Origin: a virus
IMG/VR virus record: IMGVR_UViG_3300017783_000010
Span: 5,724 to 69,723 of that record
DNA: 64,000 nucleotides
Direction: 5' to 3' (one strand)
Shown here one piece after another: positions 6,581-41,545 of this stretch. The notes under the pieces were generated by a model that did no database searches, was not told the DNA's origin, and saw only the letters and a list, made by a program, of their open reading frames with translations. Position numbers and translations under genes: made by a program. Every line of letters starts with the position of its first letter. The first letter of the stretch is position 1.

Positions 6581-7036
6581 TGATACTCTGAATACTAAGA
6601 TAAAAAATTGTGGTATTAGGTATCTTTAGAGATGCAACATTAATCTAACCATATTCGCTAACCTCTGACCAACGTACCATAAACCTTTCAAGAACAAATA
6701 TAAGCTATTTTCTGCCTCTTGTCAAGTTTTAGGTCAAGTTTTTTTTATATTTTTTTTTTATTTTGCATTATAATAATAAAAATATGTTAAAATTTTTAAA
6801 TGGTCTTGACTTTAGGAAAAAAAAGCTGTAACTTTGCCATGCTTACATAGCATACAAGCAAGCAGCTTTCAACAAATGCAACGCAAGCACTTAATCAGAA
6901 TGTCTTTAAGAAAAGAATAAAAAAATTCTTCTCTCCACAAAGATAAATAGCCGCACCCTATCTCACAGCAAATGGCTGTTAAGGAAGGCTCCTTAAAATC
7001 CTCTAGTTAGGTAATTAATAGAATATTTTTTTTAAA

Positions 7037-7551: not shown

Positions 7552-8916
7552 ATGCACAAAGAATTTGAAAGGGATATTCTTCGATACCTAATTCAAGAAA
7601 ATCAAGGTGTTGAGTATATAAAGCAGATAGACTCCGATTATTTTAGCTATGAGGAGAATAAGTTTGCTTTCAGCTACATGAAGCTGTATGTAGAGCGAAA
7701 TAACTTTATCGCTCCTCGAAACTCATTATACCGATTTGTGTATGATGAGTTAGGCTTGACCGAGACCAACCTAAAAATAGATGATATTATAAAGGATATT
7801 TATAAGCCTTATGAATCGGTCAGGTCTGAGTTATTCATAACCGTAAAAGAATACCTACAAAAGCAGTCAATAATTAAGTTATTAGCTTCTATTGAGGACT
7901 TGTCTTCTTTAAGTGATGTCGATTATTCTAGGATTGCAAACAAAATATCTGCGATTGCTAAATTAGATGCTAATGAGAATTTGTATCCTGCGGACAAGTT
8001 CGTAAGAAAAGACTTTTCTGCTACAATGCCTTCTTATGAATTGAGTATTCCATCTTTTTTAGAGGGGTTAAATAGTTTAAGAACAACTGGGGGGTTTCAA
8101 AGCCCTGAGTTGTCTGTAATTGTATCAGGAGCAAAAGGTTTTAAGACTGGTATGCTACTTAATATTGCGGTTGATTATATGTTGAAGGGTATGAATATAA
8201 TCTATATAGATTGTGAGAATGGTACTGACCAGATTAATGCCCGAATAAAGCAGATTATTGCAGGCAACTGCACCCATAAAGAGTTATATGATAAGGATAT
8301 ACAAGAGAATTTGCGTAAGCGTATGCAGTTTTTATCTAGTAATTTCTTGACTGAGGCGGGAGATATTGCTATCTGTTATGTACCTAGTGGCAGTCATTTT
8401 GATGTAGTAGAGGCTAAGATTGAGGAAAAGATTAGAGATGGATTTAGGCCAGACATCATAATTTATGATTATATTGATAAGTTTACATCAGGCTCTCATA
8501 AAGGGCATGAAGACAGCCAGAAAAACTATGATCGTGCTATTGTATTGAATAATAAGTTTAATACATTTAGTTTTACGGTATCTCAGACTAACAGAGATGG
8601 CCTAGAAGCTACTACTTTGACTGCTGCTAACCTAGCGAAGGATTTTCAGAAGGTATCGAATGCTCATGCTGTATTTGCATTAAATCGTAATCGCTATGAG
8701 TTAGATAATGGGCTTGCGCATTTAACTCCGCTTGCACAGCGTGCAGGTGAGAGATATATTCAAGGGAAGAATGAGGTATTCTTAAAAATTGATGAGTCAA
8801 TACAGTTAGTAGAGGAGATTACTGACCCTGTTGAAAAGATTAGATTATATGAGGAAATATTTGATACAGTTGTAGAGCATGATATTGATTTATCAGATAA
8901 TATAGATATACTATGA
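7552..8916 (+). CDS. Replicative DnaB-like (SF4) helicase
   Basis: Walker A-like SGAKGFKT, IDCEN, Walker B IIIYDYID, SQTNR; next to primase. Confidence 0.85.
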   Translation: MHKEFERDILRYLIQENQGVEYIKQIDSDYFSYEENKFAFSYMKLYVERNNFIAPRNSLYRFVYDELGLTETNLKIDDIIKDIYKPYESVRSELFITVKEYLQKQSIIKLLASIEDLSSLSDVDYSRIANKISAIAKLDANENLYPADKFVRKDFSATMPSYELSIPSFLEGLNSLRTTGGFQSPELSVIVSGAKGFKTGMLLNIAVDYMLKGMNIIYIDCENGTDQINARIKQIIAGNCTHKELYDKDIQENLRKRMQFLSSNFLTEAGDIAICYVPSGSHFDVVEAKIEEKIRDGFRPDIIIYDYIDKFTSGSHKGHEDSQKNYDRAIVLNNKFNTFSFTVSQTNRDGLEATTLTAANLAKDFQKVSNAHAVFALNRNRYELDNGLAHLTPLAQRAGERYIQGKNEVFLKIDESIQLVEEITDPVEKIRLYEEIFDTVVEHDIDLSDNIDIL

Positions 8917-12359: not shown

Positions 12360-12434
12360 TAAAGGGTAATAACTTTAAAAACAAGCACTGCAGAGGTTAT
12401 TACTTATAAAAATTTTGTGGTGCGTTAATTTATT

Positions 12435-12653
12435 ATGGAAACATTACTTAAAATGCTAAATGTTATTTCTTGGATATGTGTAACTGGATGTCCGTTAGTA
12501 ATAGTAATAAAGGTATGTCTACAAAGCAAGTATGAAAACTCATTAGATGAAAAAATAGATATGCTAAAAGGTGTAAAAACTGTATACACACGTGGACTAT
12601 TAAAGTTGAGTATATTATTTGTAGTCGCGTTAGTCTATTTGATTGTGCGATAA
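12435..12653 (+). CDS. Cassette gene, two-TM membrane protein
   Basis: 72 aa; bracketed by ttgtggtgc / gcaccacaac. Confidence 0.65.
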   Translation: METLLKMLNVISWICVTGCPLVIVIKVCLQSKYENSLDEKIDMLKGVKTVYTRGLLKLSILFVVALVYLIVR

Positions 12654-12726
12654 TGCACCACAACGCTAAATGTAAAAAGCGTTTAGGAACGAAATGATTA
12701 GTTACATAATGTTATAAATTTTAATT

Positions 12727-12858
12727 ATGGATATAGAAAAGGAATTTGAAGAACTAAAAGAACTAATAAAAGACACTTACGAGTTTATGGATAGAGACAA
12801 ACTTGACAAGGCTTTAGAAAAACTTGAAAAAATAAGGGTAGACGTGATTGGCAAGTAA
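12727..12858 (+). CDS. Cassette gene, 43-aa hypothetical (not in ORF track)
   Basis: Manual translation MDIEKEFEELKELIKDTYEFMDRDKLDKALEKLEKIRVDVIGK*. Confidence 0.6.
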   Translation: MDIEKEFEELKELIKDTYEFMDRDKLDKALEKLEKIRVDVIGK

Positions 12859-12944
12859 ATGTTTGCTAACGGACGAGTACAAGGTGTCGTAGCGACCTAA
12901 ACAGCACGAAACATTGAATTATAAACAACTTAAATAGATACAAA

Positions 12945-13256
12945 ATGAACTTAATTAAAACACTTACTCGCTATGCACTTTGTACATTGTTAGTTGTCTG
13001 GGCGACTTCTTGCACGGACTCTCGTTTTAAATTACTGAACCGAAATAAAAACGTAGAAATAGGCGATGTTTATTTATATAGCCACGATTGGGATGAAGAA
13101 GACCCATTTGCTAAGATAGAAATAGACACAGTAAGGGTGATTGATGTAAAAGATGGTTATGTAAAATGGCTTTATAAATTAAGTGAAAAAGATAGTAGTT
13201 TTTATTTGAGTGGAAAACTAAAGTATTTTAAGCACAACATTAAGCCTTTCAACTAA
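12945..13256 (+). CDS. Cassette gene, putative lipoprotein
   Basis: Hydrophobic N-terminus ending in WATSC lipobox-like motif; start lies inside the upstream hairpin loop. Confidence 0.6.
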   Translation: MNLIKTLTRYALCTLLVVWATSCTDSRFKLLNRNKNVEIGDVYLYSHDWDEEDPFAKIEIDTVRVIDVKDGYVKWLYKLSEKDSSFYLSGKLKYFKHNIKPFN

Positions 13257-13353
13257 TGTTGAATCTATAAAGCGTGGCGACACGCACAGTATTAATTATT
13301 AACCTTTAACAAGTCCTAGCCATGATTTTATAGATAGTGTTAGGCACAGTTTT

Positions 13354-13593
13354 ATGAGATGGAAAGATAAAAATAATGACGGGTTTTATAAAGGTAAAAA
13401 CAAAGGGTTTTACTTTACTATATCACATGCAAGAGACTATGATGCTTTTTATGTTGTTGCATCCCATCAAAAGAAAGATATTAGATTAAACACTTTGTGG
13501 GAAAATAAGACTTTTAAAACATTTGAATTAGCAGAAGAGTTTTGTAAAACCTTTGACTATAGAAAACACAGATGTATAGGTGACAATACTTAA
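13354..13593 (+). CDS. Cassette gene, hypothetical
   Basis: 79 aa; bracketed by gttaggcaca / tgtgcctaac. Confidence 0.65.
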   Translation: MRWKDKNNDGFYKGKNKGFYFTISHARDYDAFYVVASHQKKDIRLNTLWENKTFKTFELAEEFCKTFDYRKHRCIGDNT

Positions 13594-13655
13594 TTGTGCC
13601 TAACGGTTTATGTATGAGCCGTTGAAATCTAATAAACTTAATAAAAAATTAAACA

Positions 13656-13946
13656 ATGAATAAAGCAAAAAGTAAATTAATAGAAGCTAAAAAATGGCTT
13701 ATACATTTTGTTATGGTGCGTATATTTTTAATAAGTACGCACAAACGCCAAAACTACTTAATAGATAAACACGCAAGTATGTTTTTAGGGTTACAGAACA
13801 TAGCAAAAAAGTACGATAATGACGGAGATGTTAGGACAGCAATGTACATTAGTAGTAAAAGCTACGAACATTTAAATTGGTTTGCTGAATACTGCGGAGT
13901 TTTGAATATAGACCAAGTTAAAAGGATGCGACAATATGCACCATAA
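13656..13946 (+). CDS. Cassette gene, hypothetical
   Basis: 96 aa; stop codon is the TAA of TAAC; start inside the upstream hairpin loop. Confidence 0.6.
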   Translation: MNKAKSKLIEAKKWLIHFVMVRIFLISTHKRQNYLIDKHASMFLGLQNIAKKYDNDGDVRTAMYISSKSYEHLNWFAEYCGVLNIDQVKRMRQYAP

Positions 13947-14005
13947 CGGATTACGGCTAAACTGCGTTGCCGAAGAAATGCAGTATCAATTAAACACATA
14001 AGATT

Positions 14006-14206
14006 ATGAGCAATGAAGTTTTAGCCGATGTTAGCTTTCCGTTATTCCAAGATTTATATGGTAGCTACGTTCAAATGGATGATAGATTTGAAACGGTGCA
14101 TATATGGAGTGAGAAACTAGCAATGAAAAACAAAGGTAGGTGGAAGCCATTATTAATTAGCAAGAAATTGTATGACCAAGAAAAAAAGCACTCTTGGAAT
14201 AATTGA
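14006..14206 (+). CDS. Cassette gene, hypothetical
   Basis: 66 aa; start at the loop/arm boundary of the upstream hairpin; gttagctt / aagctaac ends. Confidence 0.55.
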   Translation: MSNEVLADVSFPLFQDLYGSYVQMDDRFETVHIWSEKLAMKNKGRWKPLLISKKLYDQEKKHSWNN

Positions 14207-14337
14207 AGCTAACGGACGAGTGTATGAAAAAGTAGCCCATACATGGACGTTCGGAATTATTACAAAACTTAATTAGGCTATTTTTTATACACATTGTTAG
14301 CTTTTCGTTTGGAAATCTAGCACAAAACTTAATAGAA

Positions 14338-14628
14338 ATGAACAGTTTATCACACAAAAGTTATGGGGCAATTTATGTTAATAACCCTAAAGACATTAAA
14401 AAAGTAAAAGAAGTAATTAAAGAAATGGATGAGTTTGAATTTGACTATTTGCCATCAGAACTAATAAAGCCTTTTGCTGAATATCCTGCTGTTTGCTACA
14501 CACATAAATTCTCTGATTTAGACACAGATGATTTAACAGCAAAATGTTGGGCAAAAGGAATTATGATTTGGGTGTTTGACGCAAGAACGGAATATCCTAA
14601 AAATGCACTAAGCGAAAATGAAAGCTAA
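14338..14628 (+). CDS. Cassette gene, hypothetical
   Basis: 96 aa; gttagcttt / aaagctaac ends. Confidence 0.65.
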   Translation: MNSLSHKSYGAIYVNNPKDIKKVKEVIKEMDEFEFDYLPSELIKPFAEYPAVCYTHKFSDLDTDDLTAKCWAKGIMIWVFDARTEYPKNALSENES

Positions 14629-14663
14629 CATAGTATATAAGACATATAGCTGATATTTTTTAG

Positions 14664-25744: not shown

Positions 25745-25880
25745 TTGGACGCAATCGCTTGCAATTCAATGAGTTGTAAGCGATTTTTTTATTTTATATA
25801 AAATTTATTATATTAATTACTTGCAGGGTATTGTTTATTGTCTTATATTGCAGACATATTATTTAATCAATCAAAAACTT
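25745..25880 (+). repeat. 136-bp terminator+promoter module, copy 1
   Basis: Nearly identical to 28655-28790 (2 differences) and similar to 29552-29684; aatcgcttgcaa...ttgtaagcgatt hairpin + T run, then ttgc...tatattgc promoter-like motif. Confidence 0.9.
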
Positions 25881-25882
25881 TT

Positions 25883-26089
25883 ATGGAAACTGCAAAAATA
25901 TCAATAAAAATCGGGGAAGAGCTAGAAGAAACAGGAATGGTAAATGTTTGGTGGTGGAAAGATGGAAGTGAGCCAAACCAAGAGTGGAAAACAAAAAGAC
26001 CGATATGGGAGTTTCTTGATTCAAAAAAAAACATTTATGCTGACAATAGGAGAAACAATTGTAATAAAGAAATTAAAACTAAAACGTAA
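25883..26089 (+). CDS. Hypothetical protein leading cassette array 2
   Basis: ATG at 25883 directly after the promoter module (track start 25838 is TTG inside the promoter). Confidence 0.55.
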   Translation: METAKISIKIGEELEETGMVNVWWWKDGSEPNQEWKTKRPIWEFLDSKKNIYADNRRNNCNKEIKTKT

Positions 26090-26197
26090 TTTCGAGTTTG
26101 TTCAGTAATGCAGCATAACGTTCAATGTATCGCACGTTTTAATGTGCTATACATAGTGTTAGGTTTTAGTAGAAATTATTAAAAATTATTAAAAATT

Positions 26198-26335
26198 ATG
26201 TATTACGCAGAAAAAATAATAAACGGGATATTACATTGTAAGCACACCCCTAACGGAAAGTGGAATATTAAATGTTACAGGGGTGATATTGATAAACCCG
26301 AAAAACAAACGGTGATACTTATTGATAAGTGGTAG
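26198..26335 (+). CDS. Cassette gene, 45-aa hypothetical (not in ORF track)
   Basis: Manual translation MYYAEKIINGILHCKHTPNGKWNIKCYRGDIDKPEKQTVILIDKW*. Confidence 0.55.
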   Translation: MYYAEKIINGILHCKHTPNGKWNIKCYRGDIDKPEKQTVILIDKW

Positions 26336-26449
26336 CTTGCGCATAACGCCTACGGCTATGAATTGAAGTCGTGTAACAAATGTTCGATTCAAAGAAATAA
26401 CCTTAACAAAGGCTTTTATTTATAGCCATTGTTAGCAAATTTTAAAATT

Positions 26450-26641
26450 ATGATTAAAGAAATTGAAACATTGATTGATGTAGAAGTAAGCATAAACAGA
26501 AGTATTTTAATCTACGAACTTCTTGGGTATTTTGGTGATAGACTTCCAGAAGATGTACAAACTGAAATGAGAGAACGGGCAGTAAAAGAATCCAAACAAG
26601 TTGATAAAATGACCAATAAGGTGGTTAAGCGGTTGCAATAA
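26450..26641 (+). CDS. Cassette gene, hypothetical
   Basis: ATG 26450; gttagcaa / ttgctaac ends. Confidence 0.6.
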   Translation: MIKEIETLIDVEVSINRSILIYELLGYFGDRLPEDVQTEMRERAVKESKQVDKMTNKVVKRLQ

Positions 26642-26748
26642 TTTTTATTGTTGCTAACGGTTTGGCTATGTGCTGAACGTAGAGTAACGGAGTTTTGCAT
26701 ATAGGTAATGTTATATGCTTTTTATTAACAGATTTAAAGTAAAATATT

Positions 26749-26931
26749 ATGAAAAGATTTAATTTAAAATACAACGTAGGAAAAGTAAAGTATTTAGTTT
26801 CTTACCATAATGGAGAAAAGAAACATAAAGATGGAAGCGACTTCTTTGATATTGCTTACTTTAAAAATAAAGTAAAACTAAATGCTTTTACGAATGAATT
26901 ACTAAAACAAGGGTACGTTAATTGCATATAA
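26749..26931 (+). CDS. Cassette gene, hypothetical
   Basis: 60 aa; gttatatgc / gcatataac ends. Confidence 0.65.
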   Translation: MKRFNLKYNVGKVKYLVSYHNGEKKHKDGSDFFDIAYFKNKVKLNAFTNELLKQGYVNCI

Positions 26932-27041
26932 CGGAATCGTATAAGATTTCGTGCGAGGTACGAGGATGAATTTTATACAGTGTTACCCATCTGTATTTTT
27001 AAAAATGGCAATTAGTGAGGAACGAACTAAAATTAAAGAGA

Positions 27042-27638
27042 ATGAGTAAGAAATATAATATTATTTATGCTGACCCAGCTTGGGAACAAAAAGCAGGTAG
27101 ACCATTAAGTGGTGGCTACAAAAAAGAAAATGGTGTGCAAGTATTTAACCCTAAAAGCGATAAATCTGCAGACTTACCTTATAGCACAATGAAGTTTGAG
27201 GATATAGTAAACTTACCTATTAAAAAACTAACTGATGATAACTGTCATTTGTATTTATGGGTTACTAATAAGTATTTAATGAAAGCTGAACAAGTTATTA
27301 AAGCTTGGGGTTTTAAATACTCTACTACTTTAGTTTGGTGTAAGAAACCAATAGGTAGTGGAATGGGGGGAACATTTAAAGTGTCTACAGAATATTTAAT
27401 ATTTGCTACTAAGGGTAAGGTTAATGAATTAGTAAGAGAAAAAGTAAATGGCACTTGGTTTGAAGAAAAAAGACAATATGTAAATGGTTATCCTTGCCAT
27501 TCTAAAAAACCAGATTTCTTTTATGAATTAATAGAGAAAGTATCTAAAGGTAAAAAACTTGAATTATTTTCAAGAAATGAGCGTAAAGATTGGGATGCTT
27601 GGGGAAATGAAATAGAAAATTCAATTACGATTGAGTAA
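27042..27638 (+). CDS. MT-A70 family adenine methyltransferase (cassette gene)
   Basis: KYNIIYADPAW, LYLWVT, WGFKY, HSKKP, LELFSR, WDAWGNE; ATG 27042 preferred over GTG 27015. Confidence 0.9.
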   Translation: MSKKYNIIYADPAWEQKAGRPLSGGYKKENGVQVFNPKSDKSADLPYSTMKFEDIVNLPIKKLTDDNCHLYLWVTNKYLMKAEQVIKAWGFKYSTTLVWCKKPIGSGMGGTFKVSTEYLIFATKGKVNELVREKVNGTWFEEKRQYVNGYPCHSKKPDFFYELIEKVSKGKKLELFSRNERKDWDAWGNEIENSITIE

Positions 27639-27789
27639 GCACGTATGAGTGGTTGCCATTTTTAAAAATACAGATGGGTAACGGTTTGAATAAGATTAGT
27701 AGCGCAACGCTACACACCTTAATGGTTGCACCTGCCCTATTTGCGCTATTAATTTTATTTGTTGTTATAGGGCGTTTTATACTTGAATT

Positions 27790-27993
27790 ATGAATATTAA
27801 TGAAGTTTTTAAAAAATACCCAAACGAAGAACCAAGCTATAATGGCGTTAACTATCTAACGCTAGTTGATGTAAATGGTAATATTAGTTATGCAATCACA
27901 TATTTTAATGATAACGCAGAATTTGAACCTAAATGGGGTAAGGTAGTAGCATTTGCAGACAAACAACCAAGTGATATTTTAAATGCCCTATAA
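27790..27993 (+). CDS. Cassette gene, hypothetical
   Basis: 67 aa; gttatagggc / gccctataac ends. Confidence 0.65.
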   Translation: MNINEVFKKYPNEEPSYNGVNYLTLVDVNGNISYAITYFNDNAEFEPKWGKVVAFADKQPSDILNAL

Positions 27994-28038
27994 CGTAATT
28001 GTATAACAAAAGTTACGTGAAAATAATTACTGTATTTA

Positions 28039-28069
28039 TTTGGTATGTATAAAATATTTACTATCTTTG
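28039..28069 (+). promoter_or_regulatory. Bacteroidota-type sigma70 promoter inside a cassette hairpin loop
   Basis: TTTG (28039-42), 19 nt, TATCTTTG (28062-69) matches -33 TTTG / -7 TAnnTTTG. Confidence 0.65.
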
Positions 28070-28096
28070 TTAAACAATAACTTAAAAACAGATATT

Positions 28097-28294
28097 ATGA
28101 GTACTACAGAAAAGACATTACAAGCCTTTACAAAAGAAGTAAACCCGCTAAATGAAAACTGCATCTGCATTTTTGAACAAAGAGCAGTTAGAAAGCATTT
28201 ACTATTCCAAATTGATAAAGCAAATTTTGAAAGCGATAACGAGTTTTTAAATGCAGTTGATTTTATACTAATTTCATTAAATAAGAACTTGTAA
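28097..28294 (+). CDS. Hypothetical protein inside hairpin loop
   Basis: ATG 28097 downstream of promoter; 65 aa. Confidence 0.6.
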   Translation: MSTTEKTLQAFTKEVNPLNENCICIFEQRAVRKHLLFQIDKANFESDNEFLNAVDFILISLNKNL

Positions 28295-28443
28295 TGGCGA
28301 CTAAAAAAGTAACAATTACAATCACAGACGAAATGCACCAAAAAGGAAACGACTTATCTGTTTTGGTGCTTGGGAATGAAAACTTTAGTGGCTTAATAAG
28401 CTATATGATTAATAAACTTCATAAAGAAACGAATAGCAAGTAA
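28294..28443 (+). CDS. Ribbon-helix-helix-like small DNA-binding protein (not in ORF track)
   Basis: MATKKVTITITDEMHQKGNDLSVLVLGNENFSGLISYMINKLHKETNSK*; alternating beta strand followed by two helices; TAATG coupling. Confidence 0.55.
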   Translation: MATKKVTITITDEMHQKGNDLSVLVLGNENFSGLISYMINKLHKETNSK

Positions 28444-28654
28444 TTTTTGTTATACGTTGTTATGTGCGCTTTTTGCGCTTGTAGTGGTGGTTTTAATGCA
28501 CTAGTCTAGTCTAGCGAAAATACGTTGGCAATGAGGATTGTGAAACGAACTGCAACAAACTTAAACCACCATTACACATAACATAGTATATCAGCTATAT
28601 GTCTGATATACTCTCCATTCATAAGCTATTATTTTTTTTTTTTTAAAAATTAGT

Positions 28655-28790
28655 TTGGACGCAATCGCTTGCAATTCAATGAGTTGTAAGCGATTTTTTT
28701 ATTTTATATAAAATTTATTATATTAATTACTTGCAGGGTATTGTTTATTGTCTTATCTTGCATACATATTATTTAATCAATCAAAAACTT
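28655..28790 (+). repeat. 136-bp terminator+promoter module, copy 2
   Basis: Direct repeat of 25745-25880. Confidence 0.9.
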
Positions 28791-29551: not shown

Positions 29552-29684
29552 TTGGACGCAATCGCTTGCACTTCAATGAGTTGTAAGCGATTCTTTATTT
29601 TATCTGAAATTTATTATATTAATTACTTGCTTGGTATCAAAAATTATAGTACCTTGTAAGCATATTATTTAATCAATTAAAAAC
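29552..29684 (+). repeat. Terminator+promoter module, diverged copy 3
   Basis: ttggacgcaatcgcttgca.ttcaatgagttgtaagcgatt...attatattaattacttgc...catattatttaatcaat. Confidence 0.8.
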
Positions 29685-30014: not shown

Positions 30015-30779
30015 ATGACCAGATTTTTACTACTTTTATTCGTTGTTTTTTCTTCTTGTCAAAAAGACACAGTTGAAAAACTCGAATTTGAAAAACTCGA
30101 ATCTGAAAAACTCGAATCTGAAAAACTCGAATTTGAAAAACTCGAATCTGAAAAACTCGAATCTGAAAAACTCGAATCTGAAAAACTCGAATTTGAAAAA
30201 CTCGATCAGATCAGAATTAAAACGCAAAGAGATAAGTTTCGTTTTAATGCGTTTAAAACGCATATTAAATCGTTTAAAACGCTAAATAACGCTAAAGTAG
30301 CGTTTGTACTTAGCGTTGCAAAAAACGCTAGAGTTGAAAGTAGAGTTTCTAATATACCTGCTTCCTTATATGTTGCTATGGCTATACAAGAAACTGGTTG
30401 GGGTACTAGTAAAGCCTTTAAAAAAGGGTTTTCGATAGGCAATATTAAATACTACTCGGAGAATAATTTAGCACTAGCGCAGTTAAAAAAAGATTTTCCT
30501 CATGCTAAATTCGACCTAATAAATATACACGATGATAGTCCAACAGATATGTTTGTACTTTATGAGAATCAAGAGCAGGCACTCAGGCATATATCGTATA
30601 ACTTGCAAGGAAAGTATATAAGCTATTGCAAAAACCATCATAATGTATATGAGTGGTTTAAAGCACTGCAAGCCATCGACCCAAAAAATGGAAAGTACGC
30701 TTGGGCAACCGACCCCAAATACCTTAATAAATTAACTAGCTTAGTTAGAAAATATAAGCTATATTTAATAGATATATAA
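30015..30779 (+). CDS. Lipoprotein with glucosaminidase (GH73/FlgJ-like) domain
   Basis: FSSC lipobox; AMAIQETGWGTS, GNIK, WATDPKY motifs; EKLE(S/F) repeat linker. Confidence 0.8.
   Translation: MTRFLLLLFVVFSSCQKDTVEKLEFEKLESEKLESEKLEFEKLESEKLESEKLESEKLEFEKLDQIRIKTQRDKFRFNAFKTHIKSFKTLNNAKVAFVLSVAKNARVESRVSNIPASLYVAMAIQETGWGTSKAFKKGFSIGNIKYYSENNLALAQLKKDFPHAKFDLINIHDDSPTDMFVLYENQEQALRHISYNLQGKYISYCKNHHNVYEWFKALQAIDPKNGKYAWATDPKYLNKLTSLVRKYKLYLIDI
30075..30205 (+). repeat. 15-bp tandem repeat (8 full + 1 partial) encoding EKLE(S/F)
   Basis: gaaaaactcgaat(c/t)t units. Confidence 0.95.
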
Positions 30780-40808: not shown

Positions 40809-41157
40809 CGCAAATGAAACGGTAAACGTATATAAAGGTAGCGTTACTAACGTTTACGATGCAGATACTATAACGTTAGACTTGCGTTTAGGATTTGGTA
40901 TCGTTTTACAGAACTTCAAGGTGCGTTTAGCTAGAATAGATGCTCCCGAAATTAGAGGAGAAGAACGAGAGAAAGGTATAATAAGTAGAGATGCTTTGAG
41001 AGGGTTATTAAGTAATCGAGATGTAGAGGTATTGTTCATAGAAAAAGGTAAATACGGTAGATATATCTGTGAGATTATGGTAGAGCACCACGATCAGTTT
41101 ATAAATGTTTCTGATTGGTTGTTAGATAAGAACTTAGCAGATGTGTATACATACTAG
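40798..41157 (+). CDS. Thermonuclease (SNase-like)
   Basis: VYDADTI, VRLARIDAPE, GKYGRYI. Confidence 0.85.
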   Translation: MRVNANETVNVYKGSVTNVYDADTITLDLRLGFGIVLQNFKVRLARIDAPEIRGEEREKGIISRDALRGLLSNRDVEVLFIEKGKYGRYICEIMVEHHDQFINVSDWLLDKNLADVYTY

Positions 41158-41545
41158 AATGGGACAAGAGGATTTAAAATGGGTTAGTGCTGAAAGGGGT
41201 ATTTATATATTTTGGATAGGTACATATTTTTACATAGGCCATTCTACAAATATTAGGAGAAGATTAAGAAGACATCTATCTATGATGAAGAACGGCAAGC
41301 ACTATAACAGACATATACAAAAGGCATGGGATTATGATAGGAATTTTGAGTTTAGTATTTTACATTCTTTTGATTTTGAAGCAAGCAAGGAATTACTTTA
41401 TCATTGGGAGCAAAAGTTCTTAGATTTATTTTCAGCACACTTAAACTGTCTAAATGTAAGTAAGATAGCAAATTCAGTGCATTATAAGATTAGGAGGCAG
41501 AAAAAGGCAAGGAAAGGTATTATTGACCAGAGAGATTTTATATGA
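41141..41545 (+). CDS. GIY-YIG endonuclease
   Basis: GIYIF...FYIGHS...RRLRRH...EQKFLD. Confidence 0.8.
   Translation: MCIHTRMGQEDLKWVSAERGIYIFWIGTYFYIGHSTNIRRRLRRHLSMMKNGKHYNRHIQKAWDYDRNFEFSILHSFDFEASKELLYHWEQKFLDLFSAHLNCLNVSKIANSVHYKIRRQKKARKGIIDQRDFI

Follow-up and report, generated by a model that had tools for sequence, protein, structure and literature searches.

A segment at 26.1–28.6 kb of a 64,000-nt stretch of viral DNA is probably an integron-type array of mobile gene cassettes, moved by an Xer/IntI-clade tyrosine recombinase without the IntI insertion, which would act in trans, or else kept as a passive store. The stretch, called the window here, comprises bases 5724–69723 of the IMG/VR virus record IMGVR_UViG_3300017783_000010, which is linear, 69.7 kb long and 50% complete according to CheckV. 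Its G+C content is ∼32%, and the + strand carries almost all of the genes. The carrier is a tailed phage of marine Flavobacteriaceae; within the phage collection, DNA matches to the array region came only from phages of Polaribacter, Tenacibaculum and Cellulophaga. As cargo, the array holds one MT-A70 methyltransferase gene, a promoter-bearing two-gene unit and small ORFans.

Recombination sites were called by criteria of our own rather than those of IntegronFinder, namely boxes of the form [C/T]AAC and GTT[A/G] at a distance of 45–125 nt, with the sequence between them folding into a single enclosing DNA hairpin. Scanning by these criteria recovered the five short spacers of the segment (array 2) and five sites in a second array (array 1). 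The features are listed below with their open reading frames (ORFs); bit scores refer to a covariance model of the short sites, R1, described further down.

26113–26164, +: attC-like site 1, 52 nt, canonical short class with loop CGTTTTAATG; R1 48.9 bits on +, 15.1 bits on −
26198–26335, +: cassette ORF, 45 aa; non-matching ends (GTTAGGT vs GCGCATAAC)
26341–26437, +: attC-like site 2, 97 nt; 75% match in Cellulophaga phage phi17:1
26450–26641, +: cassette ORF, 63 aa; ends GTTAGCAA/TTGCTAAC
26652–26716, +: attC-like site 3, 65 nt; R1 29.9 bits
26749–26931, +: cassette ORF, 60 aa; ends GTTATATGC/GCATATAAC; stop codon TAA within the TAAC box
26926–26988, +: attC-like site 4, 63 nt; R1 62.7 bits
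26982–27682, +: body of the MT-A70 DNA methyltransferase cassette, ORF 27042–27638 within a perfect 30-bp inverted frame
27676–27770, +: attC-like site 5, 95 nt
27790–27993, +: cassette ORF, 67 aa; ends GTTATAGGGCGTTT/AAATGCCCTATAAC; stop codon within the box
27988–28465, +: gene-bearing unit of 478 bp bounded like a giant site (TAAC ... GTTAT); ends CCCTATAAC and GTTATGTG
28459–28582, +: ORF-less segment, GTTATGTG...CACATAAC, one long hairpin of −21.3 kcal/mol; counterpart at the same place in Tenacibaculum phage JQ
28579–28612, +: array end, made up of TAAC, ATAGTATAT and a hairpin, like the sites directly before the integrase genes of loci L098, L093 and L082
12365–14660, +: array 1, same grammar, with sites at 12658, 13247, 13598, 13941 and 14207

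A first-pass annotation of this DNA had described six hairpin spacers in array 2. Five of them reappeared in the scan at exactly its coordinates, and the sixth (27988–28465) turned out to be the 478-bp unit with two ORFs. All five pairs of gene-specific inverted ends that it had proposed are real: 8 bp at 26431/26658, 9 bp at 26710/26932, a perfect 30 bp at 26982–27011/27653–27682, a perfect 10 bp (14 bp with one mismatch) at 27764/27994 and 8 bp at 28459/28582. In these five pairs the 5′ end of the cassette and the first box of its site are mutually complementary, and the cassette at 26198 fails in this respect, its ends having been recognized as non-matching in the same annotation. The MT-A70 assignment is borne out by PF05063 (E 1.4e-27) and phrog_359, and the other array that it had mentioned lies at about 12365–14629, with five sites. 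No match in PHROGs was obtained for 14 of the 15 cassette products, and the products other than MT-A70 likewise have no Pfam family. The array sequences also had no match in Rfam, a collection that does not include the attC models of HattCI and IntegronFinder. Save for one weak case, the spacers are not terminator-like and T-runs are absent; sigma-70-like promoters are not enriched (11 vs 17.3 ± 4.1 in shuffles).

The distribution of the sites is what sets the arrays apart. At a cut-off of E ≤ −5 kcal/mol, nine of the ten + strand sites in the 64-kb window fall within the two arrays (∼5 kb together), as do 10 of the window's 21 GTTA-anchored inverted pairs of at least 8 bp spaced 60–1600 nt apart. 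The total number of sites is unremarkable, ten against 4–10 per 64 kb in ten block shuffles, so the signal lies in clustering and strict intergenic tiling and not in number. The sole site-like match outside the arrays (8625–8706, TGCTAAC...GTTAGAT, −7.9 kcal/mol) sits inside a DnaB-like helicase gene and probably arose by chance. Within array 1, the 5′ ends of the longest ORFs overlap the sites at 13598–13716 and 13941–14036; the likelier start codon (13713) lies in the GTTATGG box.

The 478-bp unit carries inner inverted arms (28001–28035/28421–28455, 74%), a promoter-like motif TTTG-N19-TATCTTTG (TTTG-N19-TAnnTTTG) at 28039/28062, which we take to be the Bacteroidetes promoter consensus, and two ORFs (28097–28294 and 28294–28443). 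Two further phages, Danklef of Polaribacter (85%) and JQ of Tenacibaculum (88.5%), possess this two-gene unit (27994–28465), with other genes in front of it and a different order relative to the methylase; the ORF-less tail behind it is kept in JQ and not in Danklef. Array 1 closes with the same end as array 2 (14626–14660), its loop inverted. In the loci in which an integrase gene follows, the final junctions read ..ATTACACATAAC TATATTATAT.. (L098), ..CACATAAC TATAATATAT.. (L093) and ..CACATAAC GACTATATAT.. (L082); array 2 of the window ends as ..ATTACACATAAC ATAGTATAT.. and array 1 ends alike. The array ends in the window thus resemble attI-type sites with no integrase gene behind them, a likeness in short, AT-rich sequence that falls short of proof.

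The structure of the site is conserved. We aligned 29 of the 33 listed short-site candidates and omitted four with atypical middles (L093:1354, L096:5272, L051 and L057). The consensus runs NNNYAAC, G, six unpaired bases, a 9–10-bp stem, the loop CGTTTTAATG with an occasional insert, the return stem, 3–4 bases and GTTRNNN; AAC and GTT are invariant in all 29 sites. Pairing was found in 95.4% of cells, compared with 77.2 ± 1.2 after shuffling (0 of 500 shuffles reached 95.4), a value that is inflated at the outer pairs by the 14 of 29 sites that came from a pattern scan fixing the outer stem. When the partner was slid to other registers, pairing dropped to 27–51%. Compensatory changes occur in nine of 11 stem pairs, mostly the inner ones that the scan pattern left free. 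Furthermore, G.T cells outnumber A.C cells 24 to 6 overall and 20 to 1 in the inner stem, an excess which indicates that the gene-sense strand is the folding strand in phages; strand asymmetry of the sites stems from their spacers, loop and G.T pairs. On the same sites, R1 scored 30–63 bits on the + strand and 13–15 bits on the − strand. It detects the short class alone and, in the window, found its four training sites and none of the 95–120-nt sites. Across 15 phage loci, 31 of 31 R1 hits lay on the gene-sense strand, about 11 of the 31 being training sequences.

Cassettes are mobile between phages, and in the relatives of the window phage the crossover position is at AA|C. Danklef_1 and Danklef_2 are identical on both flanks of a 781-bp indel that consists of one hairpin plus the methylase and is bounded by a TAAC direct repeat. 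The retained site is the downstream one, which on the gene-sense strand places the exchange in TAA|C rather than in G|TT. The isolates Freya_1, 5, 6 and 10 are nested: Freya_5 has 1744 bp more than Freya_1, and to the Freya_5 arrangement Freya_6 and Freya_10 add different cassettes, 472 bp or 3198 bp in length. Every Freya junction ends at AAC (8/8), and each addition lies directly before the same ACCCCTATAACAACAATAAG (ACCCCTATAAC...), 45 nt ahead of the start of a 271-aa integrase gene. In all of these comparisons the crossover position is ambiguous within 3–4 shared bases. Such whole-cassette differences between near-identical isolates argue that the system is active in these relatives, and to that extent the first-pass annotation was right to call it active; for the window phage itself, whose record holds no recombinase, activity is extrapolated from them.

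The MT-A70 cassette recurs in other neighborhoods. Among 12 viral loci, eight encode relatives of the protein at 72–96% identity. The cassette proper, with upstream hairpin, gene and closing ..CCTAAC box, is present in L082/L088, L083 and L084 (91–93% protein identity), where it has three different downstream and two different upstream neighborhoods and the similarity ends at the AAC boxes. Over the three contexts the upstream hairpin is constant and the downstream one changes. Taken together with Danklef and Freya, where the hairpin likewise stays with the gene that follows, this identifies the mobile unit as a hairpin plus the gene 3′ of it. Of the other MT-A70 loci, L081 shares its frames with the window and continues with a site resembling one of array 1, L087 has a hairpin of its own and a 10-bp end pair, and the cassette grammar is not clear around the relatives in L085 and L086. 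The search proposed with the first-pass annotation, for single cassettes with identical boundaries elsewhere, thus succeeded for two of them, MT-A70 and the two-gene unit 27994–28465. No relative in another context was found for the other four small cassette genes of array 2, beyond a match of the first 22 residues of the 26198 product to an array cassette in L082/L088/L058.

The Mom-like gene of Polaribacter phage P12002L, in a region with the same cassette grammar as the window, is enclosed by frames 86% identical to those of the MT-A70 gene. More generally, MT-A70, second methylase, Mom-like and HNH genes are enclosed by near-identical 30–60-bp inverted frames with a TTTTTAAAAA center and a common leader and trailer (L006 2160–3830; Danklef_1, i.e. 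L005, 3050–4010 and 4660–5330; window 26982–27682). Such frames around different cargo look like a second layer of exchange within the cassette. A 15-nt motif of the frame, used as a query, gave 35 stretches in IMG/VR; 33 were chance matches in unrelated contigs and the real ones were P12002L itself and L042.

Public sequencing runs from three studies, four runs in all and available as contigs, contain parts of the array region. In runs X3 and X4, contigs span sites and methylase frames and then continue into unlike sequence just beyond the boxes, with loose ends at 26440, 26647, 26726, 26922 and 26985. These ends agree with cassettes and sites lying in other neighborhoods, and the contigs show no more than that; gaps in the coverage by X3 and X4 carry no information. 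A joint at 28777>29610 (X1 and X2), between copies 2 and 3 of the terminator repeat described below, was weak, with 20–28 letters on the shorter side, and was not used.

Arrays of this type are linked to a family of Xer-like recombinases. The 271-aa Freya enzyme consists of Phage_integrase and SAM_4 domains; its best NCBIfam model is XerA/integron-integrase (146 bits, cut-off 220), and on the integron-integrase model TIGR02249 it reaches 96.5 bits (cut-off 265). Relatives with 36–39% identity were found in six viral loci, one of which has no upstream DNA and two of which are near-identical, leaving five testable and four independent ones. All five testable loci carry 7–9 tiled sites in the 6 kb upstream of the recombinase and 1–2 in the 6 kb downstream. 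The upstream boxes chain (GTTATAT then ATATAAC, GTTAGTG then CACTAAC, etc.) up to the start of the integrase gene. In Freya and the four independent IMG/VR loci the array ends 30–65 nt ahead of a 255–271-aa Xer-like recombinase without the IntI insertion. In L082/L088, the MT-A70 cassette itself lies ∼1 kb ahead of such an integrase. As a side observation, a 60-nt stretch (gp60 start plus leader) is duplicated in Danklef_1 (6885–6945 and 8690–8750). Its second copy forms a fusion with the last 150 residues of the integrase, which is therefore truncated in Danklef, while Freya retains the full 271-aa gene; we rejected this truncation as a cassette junction because the cut lies at the duplicated stretch and not at an AAC box.

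The same ∼54-nt site is present in the chromosomes of Flavobacteriaceae, with R1 matches in 37 of 151 sampled genomes. Six bacterial clusters (L109–L114, on chromosomes G039, G026, G147, G107, G052 and G144) are rows of 0.5–1.6-kb genes whose products include SnoaL-like, glyoxalase, beta-lactamase-fold and DUF6090 proteins, ParDE, a methyltransferase and hydrolases. Here the site is intergenic and antisense to the genes in 21 of 21 hits (six loci), which is the canonical polarity. Beside the array, three of the six clusters and one single-hit locus carry a recombinase of 360–410 aa that reaches 210.5 bits on the IntI model (cut-off 265), has XerA proteins as its best solved relatives and is 31% identical to the Freya enzyme. 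In the corresponding stretch it has 22 residues vs 65 in VchIntIA (PDB 2a3v), so the IntI insertion is absent. According to a tyrosine recombinase survey (PMC8138268), this insertion is not shared by the whole ‘integron-like’ subgroup yet is essential for integron function. IntI above the TIGR02249 cut-off was found in 0 of 401 sampled genomes from the family of a Polaribacter metagenome-assembled genome (MAG), with five candidates examined per genome and no positive control, and in 0 of the four MAGs that carry the site pattern. In genome G023, the site lies 54–107 nt from the ends of contigs C11, C12 and C16 and is also present on contigs C18 and C1, a placement that would suit a multi-copy element at which assembly stops. 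Solitary 52–54-nt copies with mutually complementary boxes (e.g. GGCTAAC...GTTAGCC) in the bacterial chromosomes of L100–L108 could be empty sites or attachment sites.

Each cassette consists of one hairpin site, in which an unpaired short spacer and an imperfect stem-loop lie between NNNYAAC and GTTRNNN, with the gene behind it, and the data fit the following mechanism. The box at the gene's far end is complementary to the GTTR box, and a circularized cassette would thereby rebuild a full folded site. The gene-sense strand would fold; AA|C in the 5′ box would then be the point of strand exchange with either an attI-type site or a second cassette site, resulting in insertion beside the integrase or excision as a circle. 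Gain and loss of cassettes would be the work of an Xer/IntI-clade tyrosine recombinase without the IntI-specific insertion; we infer an Xer-like enzyme acting on single-stranded DNA. No tyrosine recombinase domain (PF00589) was found in the whole 69.7-kb record at E ≤ 1, and the enzyme would therefore be supplied in trans by a co-infecting or resident phage or by the host, or else the array is a passive store. For the MT-A70 adenine methyltransferase, an anti-restriction role is likely.

Several observations weigh against this interpretation. The record in which the recombinase is missing is half complete, and cassette movement has been shown in relatives and not in the window phage itself. 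Danklef shares just the body of the two-gene unit, from TAAC to GTTAT, hence a single crossover rule cannot cover all boundaries. The stems contain mismatches, and neither folds nor alignment show conserved extrahelical bases (bulged G or T) of the kind that, in the L box of attC sites, set strand choice; the alignment itself favors outer pairing through the 14 pattern-derived sites and the four of 33 candidates left aside. The IntI survey has the scope of five candidates per genome without a positive control. The Xer-like enzyme could be a lysogeny integrase, with the array accreting beside attP. One P12002L site was recombined with attI1 by a class 1 IntI, on the bottom strand only, as reported by Qi et al. 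2023 (PMC9892861). Finally, the joints found within the array in the public contigs (26446>26643 in X4, 26664>28441 in X2) are weak, with just 20–28 letters on the shorter side, and were not used.

Among other explanations, the strongest is that the array was assembled in an integrase-bearing ancestor or donor and is now fixed, immobile DNA in the window phage, which we consider unlikely though a serious contender. It would account for the missing recombinase, the mismatched ends of the 26198 cassette, the array 1 sites that are degenerate or overlapped by ORFs, and the attI-like array ends that no integrase gene follows. Decay of this kind is harder to reconcile with end pairs that are perfect over 8–30 bp in five of six cases, with four short sites scoring 30–63 bits on R1, and with the movement of close relatives of the MT-A70 cassette between contexts. 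As to the origin of the array it is compatible with an integron-type system, and differs just on present activity.

An ordinary cluster of attC sites lacking an integron-integrase (CALIN), that is, fragments of canonical integrons whose attC sites were made and used by a host IntI and merely picked up by the phage, is improbable. Its appeal lies in the attC form of the sites, in the phage CALINs and the IntI1 use of a P12002L site described in PMC9892861, and in the 86% identity of the frames to those of P12002L. Against it, no IntI above the cut-off was found in the 401 host-family genomes (five candidates each) or the four site-bearing MAGs, and for Bacteroidetes the IntegronFinder 2.0 preprint (bioRxiv 10.1101/2022.02.28.482270) lists In0 elements only plus one complete integron, in Salinibacter. 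Moreover, the recombinases beside the arrays lack the IntI insertion, and in the phages it is the folding strand that bears the ORFs, opposite to canonical cassettes.

That the hairpins are RNA-level or regulatory stem-loops (terminators, or elements for processing or stability), and that the genes between them are shuffled by homologous or microhomology recombination as proposed for the promoter stem-loop cassettes of T4-type phages, is the least probable. The sense strand folds, as an mRNA element would; recurrent spacer ends such as TATACGTTGTTA could provide homology, as could the 30–60-bp frames common to different DNA-modification genes, and the public contigs break at sites. Yet the breakpoints lie in 3–4-nt AAC/TAAC and not within longer repeats, and such shuffling gives no function to gene-specific ends that are complementary. 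The spacers show no T-runs, sigma-70-like enrichment or Rfam match, the bacterial copies are antisense to the genes, and the arrays are tied to a recombinase gene.

Around array 2, a terminator-plus-promoter repeat occurs in three copies (25759, 28669 and 29566), and the array lies between two of them. Their terminator/promoter-like extents are 25745–25860, 28655–28790 and about 29552–29660; the DUF932 gene is likewise flanked by two copies. The array's transcription unit opens as follows:

25745–25860, +: terminator-plus-promoter element, copy 1, with its terminator hairpin at 25753–25785
25883–26089, +: first ORF of the transcription unit, 68 aa, no family

The box GCAGCATAAC (26110–26119) behind the 68-aa ORF is the leftmost AA|C junction, the first of seven such positions (26119, 26347, 26658, 26932, 27682, 27994 and 28582). 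Array 1, used as a DNA query, had no match in the phage collection, and the flanking DUF932 protein, used as a query for close relatives, found just one remote locus. Elsewhere in the window, a glucosaminidase-domain protein (30015–30779) carries, behind a lipoprotein-like N-terminus, some eight EKLES/EKLEF pentapeptide repeats in tandem, and a GIY-YIG endonuclease gene (41141–41545) that may encode a homing endonuclease lies directly upstream of the large terminase gene.

The integron-type reading of the array may extend further, to an undescribed integron-like system of marine Flavobacteriaceae and their phages, an idea that we put forward tentatively and hold with less conviction than the reading of the array itself. 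It would combine a dedicated XerA-like tyrosine recombinase devoid of the IntI insertion with a conserved folded site of ∼54 nt, in which a stem with the loop CGTTTTAATG lies between YAAC and GTTR. Bacterial arrays would have the canonical orientation, and phage arrays would be reversed, turning over between plaque isolates of one campaign and serving as anti-defense banks of methylase, Mom-like and HNH genes, with integrase-less phages served in trans. Integrons are viewed as bacterial, defined by IntI and almost missing from Bacteroidota, and cassette arrays of virulent phages have been reported recently as orphan CALINs of unknown origin. The present data indicate that flavobacterial phage arrays are part of a system complete in itself, which has a recombinase family of its own, an attI-like site and a cassette polarity that is distinct. 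Cassettes with DNA-modification genes pass from one unrelated phage family to another among the phages of Polaribacter, Tenacibaculum and their relatives. This bears on how lytic phages manage to exchange accessory and anti-defense genes so fast and on whether folded-DNA cassette recombination can run without the IntI insertion, two questions for which cultured pairs exist (Freya and Danklef on Polaribacter).

An attC-type array in a virulent phage is a kind of element that has already been published. Qi et al. (PMC9892861) reported 17 integrase-less attC clusters (CALINs) in phage genomes, including those of virulent phages, identified with IntegronFinder/HattCI; one, in Polaribacter phage P12002L, encodes two DNA methyltransferases, and with it an array homologous to array 2 is already listed as a CALIN. 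Bartlau et al. 2021 (PMC8776804) do not use the terms integron, cassette, indel, insertion or deletion in their main text. We found no paper on cassette arrays linked to Xer-like recombinases in Flavobacteriaceae or their phages in a search that covered papers without their supplements. In the literature searched we found no precedent for the cassette polarity, for the site family with a conserved loop or for the association of arrays, in phages as in host chromosomes, with a recombinase other than IntI.

With integrons and CALINs the arrays share RYYYAAC/GTTRRRY boxes, an imperfect hairpin of 50–130 nt, complementary cassette ends, methyltransferase cargo, addition of new cassettes beside the recombinase gene and a crossover that falls at G|TT, or AA|C when read on the folded strand. 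Boxes of this type around an imperfect palindrome, together with a cassette start complementary to its own first box, amount to the integron attC signature. Both boxes, in sites with an overall length of 50–150 nt, are present in five plus five cases, and the crossover was seen in relatives only (Danklef_1/2, Freya_1/5/6/10 and the MT-A70 contexts). With 5–6 sites in 2.5 kb and no integrase in 69.7 kb, the array qualifies as a CALIN, for which at least two nearby attC sites suffice. It is not a complete integron, as an adjacent IntI with the insertion is lacking and the array-linked enzymes reach 96.5–210.5 bits vs 265. Unlike in integrons, where the site is 3′ of the ORF and the ORF on the non-folding strand, the phage hairpin is 5′ of the ORF on the coding strand; the short sites carry the conserved loop, and no conserved extrahelical bases were seen. 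The linked recombinases, of 255–271 aa in phages and 360–410 aa in bacteria, lack the IntI insertion, and the integrase of phage arrays lies downstream of the cassettes in the same direction.

Like the Xer modules of Acinetobacter plasmids (pdif), the arrays place genes between inverted recombination sites and have no recombinase of their own, an Xer-type enzyme being the presumed agent. The pdif sites differ in being 28-bp duplex XerC/XerD sites with a 6-bp spacer, placed in alternating orientation; here boxes of 7–30 bp enclose hairpins of 40–110 nt, and arrays of this type are linked to a dedicated recombinase gene. XerCD-mediated integration of the CTX phage uses folded single-stranded DNA, and a folded single strand would be the substrate of the present arrays as well. 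The promoter-carrying stem-loop (PeSL) cassettes of T4-type phages, which recombine by homology, resemble them in their rows of small ORFan genes in a hyperplastic region, with a repeated stem-loop between the genes and a content that varies among close relatives. The present arrays differ from these in having breakpoints at AA|C, gene-specific complementary ends and spacers without a promoter consensus.

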